From positions 1 through 4,908 of the IMG/VR virus record IMGVR_UViG_2548876952_000004: a stretch of DNA of 4,908 bases; one strand, given 5' to 3'. Origin of the DNA: a virus. Taxonomy: Duplodnaviria; Heunggongvirae; Uroviricota; Caudoviricetes. This document shows, one piece after another, positions 1 through 4,908 of the stretch (position 1 is the first letter of the stretch; every line of letters starts with the position of its first letter). The notes under the pieces are model-generated. The model was not told where the DNA came from, did no database searches, and was given only the letters and a program-made list of their open reading frames with translations. The translations under genes were made by a program, and so were the position numbers.

Positions 1-338
1 CCGTTTTCGTCGGTGGTGCCGATGATATTGGAAACGGTCTGCGCGAGTTTCGTTTCTTCGTCGTCGCCGGTGCCGTCTTCCACGCGCACGACAACGGTGA
101 CCGGTTTTGACTGGTCGGCGATAGCCTGCAACGATGCCGCCAGCGTGCCTTTTTTACCGGCCTTTGCAATCGCGCTCTGCACATTGGTAATCAGCACCGG
201 TTTATTGAGGGGAAAGGTTTCCGCATCCGCATCGCTGGCCGTGCAGACCATGCCGACAATGGCAGTGGATACGGTGGAAATGACACGGGTGCCGTCGTTA
301 ATCTCCAGCACCTGCACGCCGTGATGATAGTCACTCAT
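1..338 (-). CDS. FI: Tail sheath protein FI, N-terminal ~112 codons; the gene continues past the window start
   Basis: Minus-strand ATG at 338..336, which I translated by hand as [95 protein letters not shown]..., with no stop before position 1. It matches my recollection of the P2 FI (contractile tail sheath) N-terminus. A GGAG Shine-Dalgarno lies about 8 nt upstream (minus-strand ccacGGAGttaaacggATG). The plus-strand ORF 13..324 in the track is the antisense frame of this gene. Confidence 0.85.
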
Positions 339-435
339 CCGTTTAACTCCGTGGTTAATGGGTGAGTGGTATTTTCTGTTGTGCAGAGCATGAGACGCTA
401 TTTGACCTGGCTGGTCAGTGGATGAAACAACAGAT

Positions 436-458
436 AAAGAAAAGGCGGACAATCCGCC
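436..458 (-). terminator. Possible intrinsic terminator: GC hairpin followed by a T-tract, as read on the minus strand
   Basis: Minus-strand sequence GGCGG-ATTGT-CCGCC (plus 444..458; 5-bp all-GC stem, 5-nt loop) is followed directly by TTTTCTTTAT (plus 443..434). The stem is short and the hairpin lies ~210 bp downstream of the accessory ORF stop, so the assignment is tentative. Confidence 0.3.
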
Positions 459-462
459 CGCC

Positions 463-480
463 TGTCATGATTTGTACACA
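463..480 (-). promoter_or_regulatory. Perfect TGT-N12-ACA dyad; candidate binding site for an Ogr/Delta-type late activator (possible FI late promoter element)
   Basis: Plus 463..480 reads TGT-catgatttgtac-ACA. P2/186 late promoters are known to carry a TGT-N12-ACA dyad centred near -55. The site is ~130 bp upstream of the FI start codon in the correct orientation, but I could not find a convincing -10 element at the expected spacing. Confidence 0.25.
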
Positions 481-525
481 CTCATTTTCCGACTGACAAT
501 TTACATAACCCAAAAGTTATCAAAT

Positions 526-568
526 CTGACAGTCTGCTTTGAGCAAGAAGCGGACATTTGCCTGTCAG
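526..568. repeat. Inverted repeat CTGACAG ... CTGTCAG (7-bp arms, 29-bp spacer)
   Basis: Plus 526..532 ctgacag and plus 562..568 ctgtcag are exact reverse complements. The region sits between the accessory ORF stop and the FI upstream region. Confidence 0.4.
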
Positions 569-668
569 GGTATATGCCGCTCTGCGGTTATTATCCAGAA
601 TCAATAATTCATCTGAGTTGGATTACATATAAAACATAGTTACCCCATGAATAACCATGAGCAGATCA

Positions 669-1262
669 TCAATTATGTAAATCTTTTGTTTCAGGTTTTT
701 TTGGGTGTTGTGACAACAAATGGCTATAGCGTTTAAGCAAAATATTAGAAAGATTAAACTCATTCATGAAGTGTTCTTCTAATAAGTAACCATCAATATC
801 AACTTTAATATCATTACTACTTTTCATCTTCTGTAACGTAGATTTTACACACTCCAGCAGGATGCTTTGCTCATGGTAATAGTCCATAAGAAGAGTAACA
901 TCCTCTTTATCAAGTTTACTTAATTCACTGAAGTAGGCTTTAAAAACTTTATCAGTCTGGTTTAATGCAATCTGTAAGCGAGGCCCTCCTAATGATTTGA
1001 CATTAATGGCAAAAGGCTCGCCAACAAAATGCTCCGAATTTTCGTCAAAGCCAATATTTCTCGTTTTATCAAGAAAAGTGAGAGCGCGATGGTTATTAGC
1101 GATTTCATATGCAAACATTGTTCTGATACTGTCTCTCTCAGCCTCCATGCTTATATCATCACGATGATTCGTATAAAATATATTTCCAATAAAGAGAACC
1201 ATAGCAAGAATCACTGAACTTGCCTCCCAATTAATATTTTTTAATCGTCGCTTAGTAAACAT
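669..1262 (-). CDS. Hypothetical protein, 197 aa, N-terminal membrane anchor; accessory (moron) gene at the G/FI hotspot; function unknown, candidate phage-defence or superinfection-exclusion protein
   Basis: Complete ORF from ATG at 1262..1260 to TGA at 671..669, with an AAGGTG Shine-Dalgarno 6 nt upstream of the ATG. The N-terminus is MFTKRRLKNINWE followed by the hydrophobic stretch ASSVILAMVLFIGNIFYT (aa ~14-31, encoded ~1170..1223), which fits a single-pass N-in membrane anchor with a ~165-aa C-terminal domain. The gene and its flanks are visibly AT-rich compared with the tail genes. I see no Walker A, HxH or other catalytic motif and do not recognise the protein. Confidence 0.6.
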   Translation of the reverse strand: MFTKRRLKNINWEASSVILAMVLFIGNIFYTNHRDDISMEAERDSIRTMFAYEIANNHRALTFLDKTRNIGFDENSEHFVGEPFAINVKSLGGPRLQIALNQTDKVFKAYFSELSKLDKEDVTLLMDYYHEQSILLECVKSTLQKMKSSNDIKVDIDGYLLEEHFMNEFNLSNILLKRYSHLLSQHPKKPETKDLHN

Positions 1263-1408
1263 ACCGCACCTTAATTATCAAAAATATTCCTTCAGTGTTA
1301 TCTGGTTAGCCTAAACCAAGTCATTAAAGTCCGCAGGATATCATATACATAAAATGTATTGATTAGAATTTGCACTAATAAAATAATGCTTTACTAAAAT
1401 CTACTCCA

Positions 1409-1448
1409 GACACAGAGCGGCCTGTCAGATTAGGCTTTACTCTGTGCC
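1409..1448 (-). other. Imperfect nested hairpin downstream of G (possible terminator or RNA structure separating the tail operon from the accessory gene)
   Basis: Plus 1411..1417 cacagag pairs with plus 1440..1446 ctctgtg; an inner pair gcct (1420..1423) / aggc (1432..1435) is also present. On the minus strand it is followed by tctggagtagattttag, which has only a weak T-run. Low confidence. Confidence 0.2.
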
Positions 1449-1483
1449 ATAGATATGTAAGCTCACACCAGAGCTCATACAAC

Positions 1484-2011
1484 TTATTGCGGCATTTCCG
1501 GCCATTCAGGATTTGCAGGATCCACACGACTGACCAGAACGCTGTAACGCTCCCATGCATCCAGTCGGCTACGCTCCTCATCTGTTGCCATATTCAGCCT
1601 GACAGCGCGCTCCAGCGGCACAATCACGGATTCGGCTTCGGAAAGCAAAGTTGCCTTTTGTGATTCTGCCAGTTGCTGCTGTTCGTCTGCCGTATAAATC
1701 CGCTTAATCACGGCACCATCCTTAAACATCCATTTACCTGAGTCATCAGCACGTCGGTTGGCGGTAATATCAGGAACCTCGACAACGCTAAAACCTTCAG
1801 GGTTAAGCGTTGAAGCATCTCTGGTGATGCCGACAATTATATTATTCTCGTCGTAAACAATCTTTATCGTGTCTGCCTGAAAATTACTTACTTCCTCATA
1901 CCAGTTTTTTCCCTCTTCGGACCATAACCAGATAACATCAAAATTTTTTGTCAGTTGATATTGGGCAACAGTTTTTGGATTACCCGCAGTAATATTTTTT
2001 AAATGCTGCAT
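1484..2011 (-). CDS. G: Tail fibre assembly (chaperone) protein G
   Basis: 175-aa [33 protein letters not shown]...[11 protein letters not shown], which matches my recollection of P2 gpG and the Tfa tail-fibre-assembly family. Its start ATG (2011..2009) lies 3 nt after the H stop (2017..2015), with an AGGTG Shine-Dalgarno inside the H 3' end; this tight spacing is typical of an operon. Confidence 0.9.
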
Positions 2012-2014
2012 AAA

Positions 2015-4045
2015 TTACACCTGTGCGACGTTATACCATGTGCCATTGATGTATTTTTGTATTGGTCTGAATACTGCGGGGTCATCACCATCGACTTCAC
2101 CGACAATACCAAGCCCGGTAATTACGTGCCCTGCTTTCTCATACATCACCCCTTTCTGCATGGTCTGGACAACTCGAGTCCCAAGCCGGATATCGCGTAC
2201 ATAACGGGAATCAAAATTACTATAGTTAGATGGTGATACCTGCCCGTTAACAGCAAAAGTGATGCTGTTATCTGTATTTCTCTGACTGTAAAAATGCCAG
2301 CCTGCATCATCACCTAATTCAGCCACCACCGGACGACTTGAGTTTCCCCACAAATTGAATGCGGCTTCCTTCGTGGATGTATTACTGCTGCTGACCGTGA
2401 TTTTTTTCCCGCTACCGGCACGTACTTTGGTACTTGAGACAATATCACCAGTAACACTCAGGCCATGCCCCATTGATACAGCACCCGTGGCATCATTTAT
2501 AATCAGTGGTCTTAAATTATTATAAGTACCTAATCTGTCACCTGATTTAGTCAACATAAAATAAGTGCTGCTGCCATCATTCCTGATAAAGAATCCATAA
2601 TTGCCATAAGCAATGCGCAGACCATTAGCACTGAGTGATGTAATCTCACCTCTTGAACGGAGACCATAAGCGGAGCTGAGTGATAATTCTTCCTGAGCAT
2701 CAGTATTACCAGTCGCCCAGCGAACTACCCCGCCCTGTACTGTTTCATGCCAGATAGTGTCTCCTTCTCCACCACGAAACTTTCTGAGATATTTTTTGCC
2801 GCCTCTGGTGCCTGAACATAAGGCCGTAGACATATAGGCATTCTGGCTTCCGCCATCCTGATTAATCGTTCCGGTCATTGAGTCGCCCTGACGATTCCAG
2901 TCACGACGCCAGCCGGGGGAGTAGCCGTCCCCATGATTAATGTAAGTGAATTGCGCGCTGGTTGTACCGCCACCACTTGATGTTGTCGGCGTGGTCACTC
3001 GGATAGTGATTGCAGATTTAGTTCCCATGACCTCGACGACACAACCAGCCAGGTGGATATCACCACATCCGGTATCCGTAATGATTTTGTTATTTGCATA
3101 TGACCAGGAGCCTTTGCACATCCAGTACGGATGATTAAATGCACCACGGGAATCCAGCCATTCAATAAACTGAGCGGTTGTCCAGTTTCCGGCTTCAGTG
3201 CTCAAAGCGCCGCTATAAGCACGACAGGCACCGATATTTTTCGTGAAGGTATCCTTTCCCGGAATATCCGCACCGTTCTGATCTTTCTGAAGACGTTTTT
3301 CAGCATTGTCATAGGCAGACTTCACTGCTTTTGGCGTTGCCGCGAGGTTTTCAGAATCACTGTTGGTGGCGCTACTGAGCTGGACAAGACCTTTTCGCGC
3401 TGTGGTGGCGTCCTGTGCGGTATATTTCCCGTTAGCCAGGTCATATGCGGCCTTAACCGCTTTCGGCGTTGCAGCCAGTGTTTCAGACGTACTGTTGGTC
3501 GCACTGCTTAACTGAGTAAAACCTTTTGCGGTCAGCGAGGCGTCAGGGTGACGTCGTGACTGTTCGTGCTCTGCAATTTTGTCATCAACGTAATCCTGCG
3601 TCGCCATCACCGTTGTGGTGTCAATGGTCAGCTCCACTGAGGCCACACTGCTGACGATGATGACCATGCGACAGGTCTGCGAACGTCCTGAGCCTTCGGC
3701 AAGGGCTGGCTTATAGCTTTCGGCCATGTTCGCCACGGCAATTAACGTTCCCGCATCATCGTACAGGCCAAGCTCACGCATCCAGAAACCGCCCACCTCC
3801 GGCGGAATAACCAGCTCTGCGATAATATAATTACTGTTTCGTTTGTCCTGGCTGATTTTGTTCAGCGCATGTCGCCAGACTTCATGGATAAGCCCGGTCT
3901 GTCCGGCATCCGGGACAGGCAATTTACCACCGCCATCCCCGACGGCCATCGTGGTAATGTTGACCTTCCGCCCTCCCGGTGCGGTTGCCGCTGCCAGCTT
4001 TGCTGCACCGGCAGTGGTGATAACGGTTTTGAATTTTGTGCTCAT
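2015..4045 (-). CDS. H: Tail fibre protein H
   Basis: 676-aa ORF. The N-terminus MSTKFKTVITTAGAAKLAAATAPGGRKVNITTMAVGDGGGKLPVPDAGQTGLIHEVWRHALNKISQDKRNSNYIIAELVIPPEVGGFWMRELGLYDDAGTLIAVANMAESYKPALAEGSGR... and the C-terminus ...NFDSRYVRDIRLGTRVVQTMQKGVMYEKAGHVITGLGIVGEVDGDDPAVFRPIQKYINGTWYNVAQV both match my recollection of P2 gpH. It contains two copies of a ~32-aa tail-fibre repeat. Length and operon position (I-H-G) agree with P2. Confidence 0.93.
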   Translation of the reverse strand: MSTKFKTVITTAGAAKLAAATAPGGRKVNITTMAVGDGGGKLPVPDAGQTGLIHEVWRHALNKISQDKRNSNYIIAELVIPPEVGGFWMRELGLYDDAGTLIAVANMAESYKPALAEGSGRSQTCRMVIIVSSVASVELTIDTTTVMATQDYVDDKIAEHEQSRRHPDASLTAKGFTQLSSATNSTSETLAATPKAVKAAYDLANGKYTAQDATTARKGLVQLSSATNSDSENLAATPKAVKSAYDNAEKRLQKDQNGADIPGKDTFTKNIGACRAYSGALSTEAGNWTTAQFIEWLDSRGAFNHPYWMCKGSWSYANNKIITDTGCGDIHLAGCVVEVMGTKSAITIRVTTPTTSSGGGTTSAQFTYINHGDGYSPGWRRDWNRQGDSMTGTINQDGGSQNAYMSTALCSGTRGGKKYLRKFRGGEGDTIWHETVQGGVVRWATGNTDAQEELSLSSAYGLRSRGEITSLSANGLRIAYGNYGFFIRNDGSSTYFMLTKSGDRLGTYNNLRPLIINDATGAVSMGHGLSVTGDIVSSTKVRAGSGKKITVSSSNTSTKEAAFNLWGNSSRPVVAELGDDAGWHFYSQRNTDNSITFAVNGQVSPSNYSNFDSRYVRDIRLGTRVVQTMQKGVMYEKAGHVITGLGIVGEVDGDDPAVFRPIQKYINGTWYNVAQV
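3299..3526 (-). repeat. Tandem direct repeat inside H (two copies, period 132 bp / 44 aa) encoding the tail-fibre repeat motif
   Basis: H residues ~174-205 KGFTQLSSATNSTSETLAATPKAVKAAYDLAN and ~218-249 KGLVQLSSATNSDSENLAATPKAVKSAYDNAE. At DNA level, compare plus 3351..3400 cagaatcactgttggtggcgctactgagctggacaagaccttttcgcgc with plus 3483..3530 tcagacgtactgttggtcgcactgcttaactgagtaaaaccttttgcg. Confidence 0.7.
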
Positions 4046-4055
4046 TATTCCTCAC

Positions 4056-4586
4056 TTATCCGGGGTAAACCGTAATTACATCGCCGTCGTAAGCCACACC
4101 ACCGGCGAACAGGTAGCCGGGAATGTCGCGGGAAATGTTCAGGCCAATAAGGTGACGGCTTGCAGGTTTGGCATCAGCAATCAGCCGTTCCATTTCCTGA
4201 TACATTGCCTCTGTGATACCGCTTTCCAGTACACCGATATCAAGCCGGAAGGTGCCGGGCGGGTCACTGGTTTCCCACCACTCCGTCACGTTGATGAGAT
4301 AGCCCAGCGGCTCCACCACACGCCGGATTGCACCTATAGTGCCTTTATGACAGTGGATGAAATAGGCATCGCGGATAACGGCGCGTTTGGTCGCTTCCGG
4401 CCACTTTTCATCCCATCTGTCGACCGAAAACGCCCACGCCAGCCACGGCAGCAGATTTGCCGGGCAGGTGTCCGGGTTCCACAGCTCACGAATACTGACC
4501 GGTGTTTTTTCAATTTCCGCACAGGCTTTTGCGGCGGCGACCTCAAGCGGTGATGAGCCGGTCGGCAGCAGTCGCGAATCACTCAT
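4056..4586 (-). CDS. I: Baseplate assembly protein I
   Basis: 176-aa ORF MSDSRLLPTGSSPLEVAAAKACAEIEKTPVSIRELWNPDTCPANLLPWLAWAFSVDRWDEKWPEATKRAV..., matching my recollection of P2 gpI in sequence and length. It lies between J and H as in P2, and its start overlaps the J stop by 8 nt. Confidence 0.9.
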   Translation of the reverse strand: MSDSRLLPTGSSPLEVAAAKACAEIEKTPVSIRELWNPDTCPANLLPWLAWAFSVDRWDEKWPEATKRAVIRDAYFIHCHKGTIGAIRRVVEPLGYLINVTEWWETSDPPGTFRLDIGVLESGITEAMYQEMERLIADAKPASRHLIGLNISRDIPGYLFAGGVAYDGDVITVYPG

Positions 4587-4908
4587 CCGAGCCTCCGGTC
4601 ACGACGCGGTATTCGGTACAGAAAGACGCCTGCGTACTGTTGAGCACGATGTCGGCCAGTGGTGCGGCCAGCTCGACACGCTGCACGCCTTCCACATGCA
4701 AAGCGGCATAAATGGCAGACAGACGGATGTCGCGCCCCAGCCGGTGCTGTGCCGTGATGTACGCTTCCAGTTTTTTCACGGCGGCAGCGCGTATGGGTTC
4801 GCTTTCGGGACCAGGGTAAAGGTAAAGCGTGGCGTTTATCTGGTATTCAACGATGGCGGCAGACTGCACGGTCACGCGGTCGGCCACCGGCCTGACGTCC
4901 TCGCCATT
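4579..4908 (-). CDS. J: Baseplate assembly protein J, C-terminal ~109 codons; the gene begins beyond the window end
   Basis: The minus-strand frame is open from the window edge (hand translation ...NGEDVRPVADRVTVQSAAIVEYQINATLYLYPGPESEPIRAAAVKKLEAYITAQHRLGRDIRLSAIYAALHVEGVQRVELAAPLADIVLNSTQASFCTEYRVVTGGSDE) to the stop at 4581..4579. The M at 4887 in the ORF track is an in-frame GTG, not the true start. The position immediately upstream of I fits P2 gene order V-W-J-I-H-G. Confidence 0.8.
   Translation of the reverse strand, partial: NGEDVRPVADRVTVQSAAIVEYQINATLYLYPGPESEPIRAAAVKKLEAYITAQHRLGRDIRLSAIYAALHVEGVQRVELAAPLADIVLNSTQASFCTEYRVVTGGSDE

Follow-up and report, generated by a model that had tools for sequence, protein, structure and literature searches.

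Inverted-repeat ends, not a repeated octamer, bound the G/FI cargo slot of a P2-like phage: a putative fossil transposon-like cassette carrier

Introduction

In E. coli, P2-like prophages form a major reservoir of genes for anti-phage defence, and the way in which their hotspots gain and exchange cargo is still discussed. The window analysed here is a stretch of 4,908 nt, positions 1 to 4,908 of IMG/VR virus record IMGVR_UViG_2548876952_000004. An earlier note on this DNA reported an octamer, GCCTGTCA, at three sites around an accessory gene. It suggested direct repeats left by cassette insertion or exchange, binding sites for a phage regulator, or repeated promoter-associated elements. We asked what the octamers are and how the cargo of this slot arrives and is replaced.

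The core finding, inverted repeats that flank the G/FI locus, has been known since 2004. Nilsson et al. 2004 (Mol Biol Evol 21:1), as cited in a review, reported inverted repeats on either side of the Z/fun locus of P2-like coliphages. They share the locus (G/FI) and the sequence with those described here, and the idea of repeats that mediate gene exchange with other enterobacterial replicons is also shared. The review quotes the paper as proposing site-specific recombination. The available passages of Vassallo et al. 2022 (PMC9519451) and of the iLund4u preprint (10.1101/2024.10.15.618418) report variable, defence-enriched cargo between tail genes at the P2 Z/fun defence hotspot, as found here. 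There the hotspot is identified through the genes on either side of it, and those passages make no mention of an inverted repeat or of boundary sequences. For the other P2 hotspot (old/tin), the passages available from Rousset et al. 2022 only speculate on cos-proximal recombination.

Results

Genes of the window. Pfam assigns the products of I, H, G, and FI. The 5' part of FI (tail sheath; Gp18_domIII_N, E 1e-14) is on the minus strand at 3 to 338, with the start codon at 338. At the DNA level it is 93 to 96% identical to the FI genes of P2-like phages. Gene G (tail fibre assembly protein; Caudo_TAP, E 1e-34) is on the minus strand at 1484 to 2011. The accessory DNA between G and FI is the P2-type Z/fun hotspot. 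Positions 300 to 1520 are 97% identical to 13 Peduovirus records, and other records contain different cargo at the same place.

The cargo segment is at 561 to 1393. Its G+C content is 27 to 42%, against 46 to 64% in the flanks (composition profile). It has no DNA similarity to other cargo classes and was present in 203 of 5,426 complete E. coli genomes. The cargo gene (669 to 1262, minus strand; ORF list) encodes 197 aa and is named 'lysogenic conversion protein' in some records. The protein had no Pfam, PADLOC, or NCBIfam match. It belongs to phrog_3829 (unknown function; E 7e-134) and has an apparent hydrophobic stretch near the N-terminus, as read from the sequence.

The octamer. GCCTGTCA is present on the plus strand at 460 to 467 (copy 1), 560 to 567 (copy 2), and 1420 to 1427 (copy 3), and there is no further match on either strand of the whole window. 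The earlier note had these three copies right. The expected count was 0.15, and none of 200 dinucleotide-preserving shuffles reached three. All copies are non-coding, as had been said; they lie outside FI, the cargo ORF, and G, which are all on the minus strand. Copy 3 is 158 nt above the ORF start, close to the 160 bp given before. Two copies had been placed about 100 bp below the ORF stop. This is correct for copy 2 (102 nt, from 567 to 669), and copy 1 is about 200 nt away. The motif is not equally frequent beyond the window; 951 kb of related P2-like loci gave a background of 0.08 per kb on both strands. Enrichment is a local property of this sequence.

The G/FI intervals of relatives mostly lack the octamer (60 of 78), and only 3 of 78 contain three copies. 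Site 1 reads GCCTGTCC in 42 of 77 relatives, GCCTGTCA in 11, and GCCCGTCC in 10. Site 3 reads GACTGTCA in 61 of 77 P2 relatives and GCCTGTCA in 6. At site 2, GCCTGTCA is restricted to seven loci, all of the same cargo class as the window, and a diverged cargo homologue on an Enterobacter plasmid has AGCCTTAT there. The octamer is not conserved as a unit at any of the three sites.

Breakpoints and empty sites. We placed breakpoints by comparison with 12 annotated phages that contain at least 10 different cargos. Homology to the other-cargo phages stops at 547 to 568 (mostly 554 to 559), 1 to 2 nt from copy 2. It restarts at 1396 to 1411, 9 to 24 nt from copy 3. The breakpoints, clustered at 547 to 568 and 1395 to 1411, adjoin a 36-nt inverted repeat (523 to 558 and 1396 to 1431). 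The same arrangement was found in 73 of 80 IMG/VR loci, with about 30 cargo lengths from 762 to 4,657 nt.

Empty sites were retrieved from four phage contigs (L023 and L086 to L088). In these, 465 is joined to 1484 with 2 nt between. The sequence reads ...CCGCCCGCCTGT, then AT, then TTA, with 2 nt separating the stop codon of G from the terminator hairpin. The block from 466 to 1483 is wholly missing, and that junction therefore falls inside copy 1. The expectation that cargo boundaries fall at the motifs thus held for closeness. The true boundary elements are the inverted repeats of about 87 nt described below.

The hairpin is at 443 to 463 on the minus strand. The terminator scan gave a Rho-independent terminator-like structure with a 9-pair stem, six GC pairs, and the T-run tail TTTCTTTATC. 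Its place directly after G in the empty-site phages marks it as the putative ancestral V-operon terminator. An Rfam search of the window returned sub-threshold matches only; STnc630 (RF02052) scored 24.2 bits (E 0.067; 524 to 408, minus strand) against a gathering threshold of 55 bits. The G-FI gap is often 122 to 131 nt in other genera, which equals the empty state, and the ends are missing from 78 of 80 loci of other genera (one genome per species). By this comparison, the empty state in other genera looks ancestral. Both flanks within about 645 bp were found in 0 of 989 E. coli genomes, with a query that contained the arms and so was blind to the true empty state.

The cassette element and its ends. 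The element lies at 474 to 1480, inserted between the stop codon of G and the terminator of the V operon, and has terminal inverted repeats of about 87 nt. End B, on the FI side, is at 474 to 560 (plus strand). It matched an nhmmer profile of 13 ends over model positions 1 to 87 (E 1e-14). Its terminus is GTACACACTCA, its subterminal repeats are ACTGACAA (491 to 498) and ATCTGACAG (524 to 532), and its inner 36-nt arm is at 523 to 558. End A, on the G side, is at 1394 to 1480 (minus strand) and matched the same 13-end profile over positions 1 to 87 (E 1e-16). Its terminus is GTATGAGCTC on the minus strand. Its inner arm (1396 to 1431) has an innermost 15 nt that is degenerate in this cargo class. 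The 'left inverted repeat' of GenBank AJ512679 (101 nt, P2-EC45) spans the final bases of G together with end A.

The terminus of each end reads GTAT..., and each end contains two WATYTGACAG subterminal repeats about 33 nt apart. The 13 ends, plasmid ends included, align without gaps to the consensus GTATTAGCTCAGACTTGAYCTGACAG..., and the WAATCTGACAG column block is nearly invariant. The termini in the window are degenerate, with 72% and 56% identity over the first 25 nt. The outer end parts were not significant as inverted repeats when the window alone was used, because the P2 termini are degenerate. Their kinship emerged only via the plasmid copies. Variability along the P2 ends is 3 to 8% over the first 70 nt and up to 38% in the last 10 nt beside the cargo.

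Two short fillers lie outside the profile matches and are missing from the empty sites. One is 8 nt (CATGATTT, 466 to 473), between the backbone and the FI-side terminus. The other is 3 nt (AAC, 1481 to 1483) and separates the terminus of end A from the stop codon of G. The copy in the window has these 8 + 3 nt at its junctions and a flank identity of 4/8, which is no recognisable target-site duplication. The 8-nt filler is possibly a decayed target-site duplication.

Position of the octamers in the ends. Copy 3 is the reverse complement of the inner subterminal repeat of end A, AATCTGACAGGC. It differs from the usual subterminal repeat by an A-to-C change peculiar to this subclade. Copy 2 shares base 560 with the end B profile match, and the rest of it is the first cargo-class-specific bases. 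Copy 1 spans the junction of backbone and filler. Its GCCTGT is phage backbone (the terminator-stem flank), and its CA is the first 2 nt of the filler. On the minus strand, the copy 1 junction reads AAATCATGACAGGC, which resembles the true subterminal repeat AATCTGACAGGC.

The octamers are thus very probably by-products of the two inverted-repeat ends, with no unit of their own. The lack of conservation suggests that two of the copies are coincidental, and this is argued against a triple occurrence that is statistically unusual. The octamer repeat itself has no demonstrated significance. A candidate origin of copy 2 as the relic of an extra G-side arm (574 to 583) was rejected, with an alignment score no better than that of shuffles.

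The same ends on other replicons. Single genes flanked by these ends were also found on plasmids (Yersinia, Citrobacter, Salmonella, and Klebsiella), in a lambdoid prophage, and in a tRNA-Gly island. Arm-like matches were found on 502 plasmids. A transposase was found in none of the copies. The ORF list shows no tnp gene inside the element of the window, and no invertase or integrase gene in the window. Seven non-P2 copies were compared for 8-bp flanking duplications. The match was 8/8 in four and 6/8 in two, against a null mean of 4.3 and a maximum of 7. The perfect duplications, TATTAGCT, CATTAAGT, ATTTAGTT, and AAATAACG, are AT-rich and lie directly outside the termini. From these ends and duplications, the element is probably transposon-like.

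These copies also bear on the first proposal of the earlier note, in which the octamers are direct repeats left by cassette insertion or exchange. They would then be target duplications or footprints. The three copies do have the same orientation, and each is 0 to 24 nt from a comparative breakpoint. However, the real duplications of the family are 8 bp long, AT-rich, and directly adjacent to the termini on the outside. Copy 1 is 7 nt outside the end B terminus, copy 2 is on the inner edge of that end, and copy 3 is 53 nt inside the end A terminus. Relatives do not conserve the octamers, whether their cargo is the same or different. This proposal is already contradicted and we consider it most improbable.

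Regulation and RNA structure. The Ogr/Delta activator site of late promoters is centred about 55 nt upstream of the late transcription start. We transferred the distances of the P2 annotation (activator site 69 to 97 nt and start site about 25 nt upstream of FI) to the window, where the flank is collinear with 90% identity. This puts the approximate Ogr site of the late promoter PF at 407 to 435 on the minus strand, with transcription predicted to start near 363. The site overlaps none of the three octamers.

Copy 1 is about 25 nt from that mapped region, and TGACAG is like a -35 hexamer, as would suit P2 regulator sites (Ogr, C, or Cox) or repeated promoter elements of the cargo or late operons. 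The plasmids, the lambdoid prophage, and the island have the same ends without P2 regulators, however, and sites 1 and 3 are variable in relatives. A promoter scan gave nothing at the copies. Some classes contain a promoter-like unit just inside the ends, an arm end (-35-like) followed by a TGnTATGTT -10 and a GGGAGCAGGTCA leader, with 18 matches against 2.5 expected. As an inward-facing cargo promoter it was rejected; the genes are oriented to match it in no more than 4 of 7 classes. A regulatory role for the octamers is extremely unlikely.

The arms could instead pair, in read-through RNA or as a DNA cruciform, in a stem of about 36 bp that contains the octamer and insulates or processes cargo RNA, for example by RNase III. 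Predicted duplex energies were about -35 to -40 kcal/mol, where shuffled partners gave -15, and the plus-strand RNA was more stable in 31 of 36 arm pairs. That strand bias stems from a few shared consensus positions, however, and there is no covariation. Arms of the same locus were no more complementary than arms across loci (permutation p 0.90 and 0.53; 30 cargo classes). The arms are 0.8 to 4.6 kb apart, and the repeats are fully accounted for as transposon ends. A functional stem has hardly any credence with us, and transposon-like ends are the preferred account of the arms.

A split ancestral hairpin or terminator with the cargo in its loop was rejected as well, since the real empty site has no arms at all. 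Exact-pattern scans of IMG/VR for adjacent arms gave nothing relevant, and L093 was an unrelated chance match.

Cargo of the slot. More than 30 mutually unrelated cargos, with stacked ones as the exception, occupy the same slot in other Escherichia P2-like phages and share its boundaries at the inner edges of the repeats. They are mostly of defence type. The families across loci include Shedu, an RT plus ATPase, a PARIS-like fusion, and AAA_13. Across the copies, the cargo proteins were of defence type and a transposase was present in none. The homologue of the window cargo on the Enterobacter plasmid sits between the inner parts of both ends (short matches, E 7e-5 and 9e-4). Where cargos are stacked, partial arm ends remain at the joints between them. 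The L053-class cargo has a plasmid-type end nested inside it, with its terminus intact.

It is rather unlikely that cargo is exchanged by site-specific recombination at the ends, with the TGACAG-containing motifs as recombinase-binding sites (attributed to Nilsson et al. 2004). In about 30 classes the cargo stops sharply at the inner edges of the ends, and the partial arm ends at stacked-cargo joints also fit such exchange. However, no recombinase gene that travels with the element was found. The cargo termini across classes have no common site, except for an inner end extension in some classes. Variability climbs gradually towards the cargo with no switch at a fixed crossover point, and the 8-bp duplications elsewhere point to transposition of the whole element. 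As a question by itself, whether exchange is homologous rather than site-specific stands at even odds.

Other segment types were rejected. Inversion between the arms was not seen, with no cargo in both orientations among 38 representatives. A DNA-invertase (Gin/Cin/Hin) segment would also not fit this single orientation, and the window has no invertase gene; the hix/gix core sequence appears to be absent. An integron gene cassette, which would end in an attC site and adjoin an integrase with attI, was set aside on the lack of a common site at the cargo ends of the classes and of an integrase in the window.

Discussion

The slot at the P2 'Z/fun' hotspot appears to be an old, fossil copy of a non-autonomous transposon-like cassette carrier, which we infer in part from sequence comparison. 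That the ends explain the octamers and that the element is transposon-like are together likely. The element would have reached the ancestor of Escherichia P2-like phages by DDE-type transposition, with the transposase supplied in trans. It would then have lost its mobility, as its termini became degenerate and its duplication unrecognisable. The conserved ends may now be where cargo is replaced, through recombination with members of the same family on other replicons. This recombination could be homologous, or site-specific as proposed by Nilsson et al. 2004. Homologous recombination in the tail genes on either side would then spread cargo alleles between phages. Compared with the site-specific recombination attributed to Nilsson et al. 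2004, the data here point to transposition for the arrival, and the mechanism of exchange may be either.

Mobile insertion cassettes and cargo-bearing MITE-like elements are non-autonomous, with IS-type inverted repeats around passenger genes. The element found here shares with them the terminal inverted repeats, the target duplications (around non-P2 copies), the lack of an internal transposase, the one or few passengers, and the copies in unrelated replicons. Unlike them, it has ends of about 87 nt with two internal repeats, and its P2 copy appears to be immobilised and to serve as a fixed slot. The element is absent from the MITE survey PMC11602168.

A wider reading is possible, and we offer it tentatively. 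The ends may define a family of non-autonomous transposon-like cassette carriers, undescribed in modern terms, with inverted ends of about 87 nt, two TGACAG repeats in each, 8-bp target duplications, and no transposase. Such a family would move single anti-phage or accessory genes among plasmids, lambdoid and P2-like prophages, and genomic islands of Enterobacterales. The fossil copy in P2 would be a fixed docking slot, and its ends would be the homology for swaps. If true, the family would account in mechanistic terms for one of the two classic defence hotspots of P2. A G/FI hotspot that is the interior of a transposon-like element would give cargo a concrete route from one replicon to another, and one that can be tested. 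The end profile could locate such cassettes, and candidate defence genes in them, elsewhere.

The IS66 family (ISCro1-like) resembles the element in its 8-bp duplication, its GTA... terminus, and its repeated physical association with the ends. IS66 ends read GTAAGCG..., however, and the ends of the element begin GTATTAGC; the two can be aligned over a few bases only. IS66 elements also encode tnpA, tnpB, and tnpC, and the element of the window has no tnp gene inside it. A Klebsiella plasmid had hinted that the arms are IS66 terminal repeats. This was rejected, as full plasmid copies show separate termini and ISCro1 is an independent insertion. In L180, ISCro1 (ends GTAAGCGTCTC... and GTAAGCGGCTC...) is inserted into one end with its own 8-bp duplication, GCTCAAAG. 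In L177, an IS66 copy abuts an end, which is an event separate from the element.

Window genes and the octamer

The window contains a P2-like phage tail module with its genes on the minus strand. It encodes the end of J (4579-4908), I (4056-4586), the tail fibre gene H (2015-4045), the tail fibre assembly gene G (1484-2011), a 197-aa cargo ORF with no assigned family (669-1262), and the start of the sheath gene FI (338 downward). The octamer GCCTGTCA is found on the plus strand at 460-467, 560-567, and 1420-1427 (copies 1, 2, and 3) and at no other site in the window on either strand. The earlier note had thought chance unlikely, and the shuffles agree: dinucleotide-preserving shuffles averaged 0.15 copies, and 0 of 200 contained three. 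By the gene layout, all copies lie in the G-FI interval, which is the classical P2 Z/fun accessory locus.

The Escherichia coli RM14723 chromosome is 100% identical to the window over 575-1395, and 13 sequenced Peduovirus records share 97% identity with 300-1520. Of 5426 complete E. coli genomes, 203 contain the cargo gene. Its product belongs to phrog_3829, for which the function is not known, and had no match in Pfam, PADLOC, or NCBIfam. It is an uncharacterised candidate lysogenic-conversion or defence gene. As read from the sequence, the protein has a hydrophobic stretch near its N-terminus.

Cargo boundaries and empty sites

Window 1-2100 was set against 12 annotated P2-like phages, which between them carry ten or more different inserts. 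FI-side homology stopped at 522-568 in every case, mostly at 554-559, and G-side homology restarted at 1395-1411 in every case. Base-by-base inspection showed that the insert is flanked on each side by an imperfect inverted repeat of ~36 nt. The FI-side arm (523-558) is AATCTGACAGTCTGCTTTGAGCGAGGAGCGGACATT, and the G-side arm (1396-1431) is AATGTCCGCTCCTTGGCACAGAGCGGACTGTCAGATT. Both flanks were present in 73 of 80 further IMG/VR loci. Between these same arms lay about 30 insert lengths (762-4657 nt), and the inserts, stacked ones excepted, were mutually unrelated at the DNA level.

Four loci (L023 and L086 to L088) were empty. In these, window position 465 is joined to 1484 via two bases, and the terminator hairpin (443-463) directly follows the G stop codon. 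A second sample contained 80 P2-like loci from other species, with one genome per species. Ends were present at the G/FI site only in its two Escherichia loci, L094 (one end detectable) and L095 (both). Where G was recognisable, the G-FI gap frequently measured 122-131 nt, as long as in the empty state. The empty loci and these gaps therefore identify the occupied state as a lineage-specific insertion, a block of ~1 kb between G and its terminator. A Raoultella locus (L142) had one end, located elsewhere in the locus.

Structure of the ends

In complete plasmid copies, the arms are just the inner third of terminal inverted repeats of ~87 nt. The two ends share a terminus, GTATTAGCTCAGACTYGAYCTGRCA, and an inner segment, TAATCTGACAG...GGAGCGGAC, and differ in a middle segment of ~22 nt. 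Each end contains two WATYTGACAG repeats about 33 nt apart. Thirteen ends, including both from the window, aligned without gaps over 90 nt. The resulting profile matched 474-560 on the plus strand (the FI-side end; E 1e-14) and 1480-1394 on the minus strand (the G-side end; E 1e-16), so that the element spans 474-1480. Filler of 8 nt (466-473) and 3 nt (1481-1483) separates the termini from the backbone. The terminal 25 nt of the window copy were 72% and 56% identical to the consensus, compared with 80-92% in plasmid copies, and its flanks agree at 4 of 8 bases. This copy looks old. Rfam gave a weak hit, below threshold, to the enterobacterial sRNA STnc630 (408-524, minus strand; 24 bits against a gathering score of 55; E 0.067); it covers the FI-side terminus, the filler, and the terminator.

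Copy 3, taken as its reverse complement, is the inner subterminal repeat AATCTGACAGGC of the G-side end. Among 77 loci of P2 relatives, 61 have GACTGTCA at this position and 6 have GCCTGTCA. Copy 1 contains six backbone bases, also present in empty sites (GCCTGT|AT), and the first two filler bases. Its site reads GCCTGTCC in 42 of 77 relatives, GCCTGTCA in 11, and GCCCGTCC in 10. The first base of copy 2 is the last profile-matched FI-side base, and the remainder is cargo specific (the profile match ends at 560 and the arm at 558). Copy 2 is restricted to the seven loci with the window's cargo; in an Enterobacter plasmid homologue of that cargo (75% identical) the site is AGCCTTAT. Among 78 related intervals, the octamer was absent from 60, and only 3 had three copies. 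This placement and variation show that copy 3 contains, in its TGACAG core, a genuine repeat of the transposon end and that the three-fold exact octamer is a quirk of one subclade. The suggestion that the octamers bind P2 regulators is unlikely, because the ends are present in replicons without those regulators and the octamers vary.

On the minus strand, the copy 1 junction (AAATCATGACAGGC) resembles the true subterminal repeat. The FI-side junction CCCGCCTGTCATGATTTG (457-474) resembles CCGGCCATTCAGGATTTG (1498-1515), within the 3' end of G, with 78% identity over 18 nt. The latter lies 14 nt past the G-side junction. The likeness could be chance or a trace of junction formation.

Copies outside P2

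The G-side arm matched 129 plasmids and the FI-side arm 502 (Klebsiella, Pantoea, Salmonella, Yersinia, and others). A plasmid-type end of 85 nt had matches covering 80% or more of it in over 1,100 E. coli chromosomes, usually once in each of these complete genomes. Non-P2 copies hold one or a few genes and contain no transposase. Their cargos are a 66-aa protein, a 143-aa protein, a HEPN/RES-N-terminal protein, two unannotated proteins (514 and 335 aa), a TolA-C-terminal-like gene upstream of a lambdoid prophage holin gene, and a gene within a tRNA-Gly island. The lambdoid-prophage copy, 610 bp long, lies in the E. coli M160133 chromosome (L181, 6001-6610); it carries the TolA-C-terminal-domain gene and is directly upstream of the prophage's holin gene, essD.

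Perfect 8-bp direct duplications (TATTAGCT, CATTAAGT, ATTTAGTT, and AAATAACG) flank four of seven non-P2 copies, and the flanks of two more are identical at 6 of 8 bases. Mismatched flank pairs, used as the null, had a mean of 4.3 and a maximum of 7. Inverted ends, 8-bp duplications, and passenger genes are hallmarks of a putative non-autonomous transposable element.

The P2 Z/fun hotspot itself is well known (Vassallo et al. 2022, PMC9519451; iLund4u preprint, 10.1101/2024.10.15.618418). In GenBank AJ512679 (the P2-EC45 Z-region), a 'left inverted repeat' of 101 nt is marked on homologous sequence, and a 2022 review credits a site-specific recombination view to Nilsson et al. 2004. The octamer finding is thus a partial view of a feature already described. 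The full end structure, the 8-bp duplications, the empty sites with their ancestral status, the lambdoid-prophage and island copies, and the variability gradient in the ends may go beyond the 2004 description. If those points are new, the element family would be notable as a vehicle for single defence genes.

Cargo turnover

Between cargo classes, the P2 ends varied by 3-8% across the ~70 nt nearest the terminus; the figure climbed to 17-19% at 70-80 nt and reached 38% in the final 10 nt beside the cargo. The inner arm sequence varies with cargo class. On an Enterobacter cloacae plasmid, the window's cargo has a homologue flanked by the inner ~30 nt of each end. In the L053 class of phage loci, a plasmid-type end whose terminus is intact sits 86 nt inward from the phage's G-side end, and stacked cargos retain partial arm ends at internal joints. 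The gradient, the Enterobacter homologue, the nested end, and the stacked joints suggest that cassettes would arrive pre-packaged between related ends and be exchanged by crossovers inside those ends, either homologous or site-specific. Tail-gene recombination would then spread them among phages. None of the element copies was found to contain a recombinase or transposase.

This third end copy, with terminus GTATTAGCTCAGACC, is present in L053, L055, L060, L063, and L064 (for example, L053 7532-7769 and 9993-10079). With the G-side end it forms a 238-bp end-to-end pair beside a 2.2-kb cargo, which suggests acquisition from another replicon or nested insertion. The cargos have a modular build: that of L003 is contained in the 4.6-kb L017 cargo, that of L059 corresponds to the left 1.5 kb of the L070 cargo, and that of L061 to the right-hand part of the L053 cargo. 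Such overlaps indicate that cassettes are stacked or lost stepwise within the slot.

Assignable cargos encode typical anti-phage functions: Shedu SduA, an AAA ATPase with a reverse transcriptase, an AAA-DUF4435 fusion like PARIS, AAA_13, FRG, and HNH. They agree with the defence enrichment of the hotspot reported in the same two sources (Vassallo et al. 2022; iLund4u).

Alternative roles and IS66 elements

A long-range stem between the arms, in RNA or DNA, is energetically possible. It showed no covariation, and same-locus arms paired no better than different-locus arms (p 0.90 and 0.53). No inversion between the arms was seen.

Some classes contain a promoter-like unit inside the ends. Its parts are the inner end of the arm (..GCGGACNTT), ~27 nt containing a TGnTATGTT element (as TGnTATGTTAAT or TGTGTATTAAT), and then GGGAGCAGGTCA. 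The motif had 18 matches against 2.5 expected. It was found at cargo ends (L009, L020, L028, L043, L059, L065, and L080), internally (L037, L053/L061, L070, L074, and L075), and in plasmid L179 (about 2100-2140). Several cargo classes with no relation to each other have it immediately within the ends, and it is also present at stacked-cargo joints. As a cargo promoter it was rejected, since gene orientation agrees in only 4 of 7 classes. The most likely reading of the unit is that it extends the ends inwards; promoter plus leader and recombination joint are other candidates.

An IS66-family origin of the ends was also rejected once the full ends had been defined; the apparent link came from IS66 copies that abut or interrupt them. 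In Salmonella pIncFII.1 (L180, 2975-5593), an end is interrupted by an ISCro1 copy bounded by a duplication of its own (8 bp, GCTCAAAG). In Klebsiella pINF078-VP (L177, 5998-8701), the tnpC stop codon of an IS66-like element lies inside the terminus of an end. IS66-type elements may have a target preference for these repeats.
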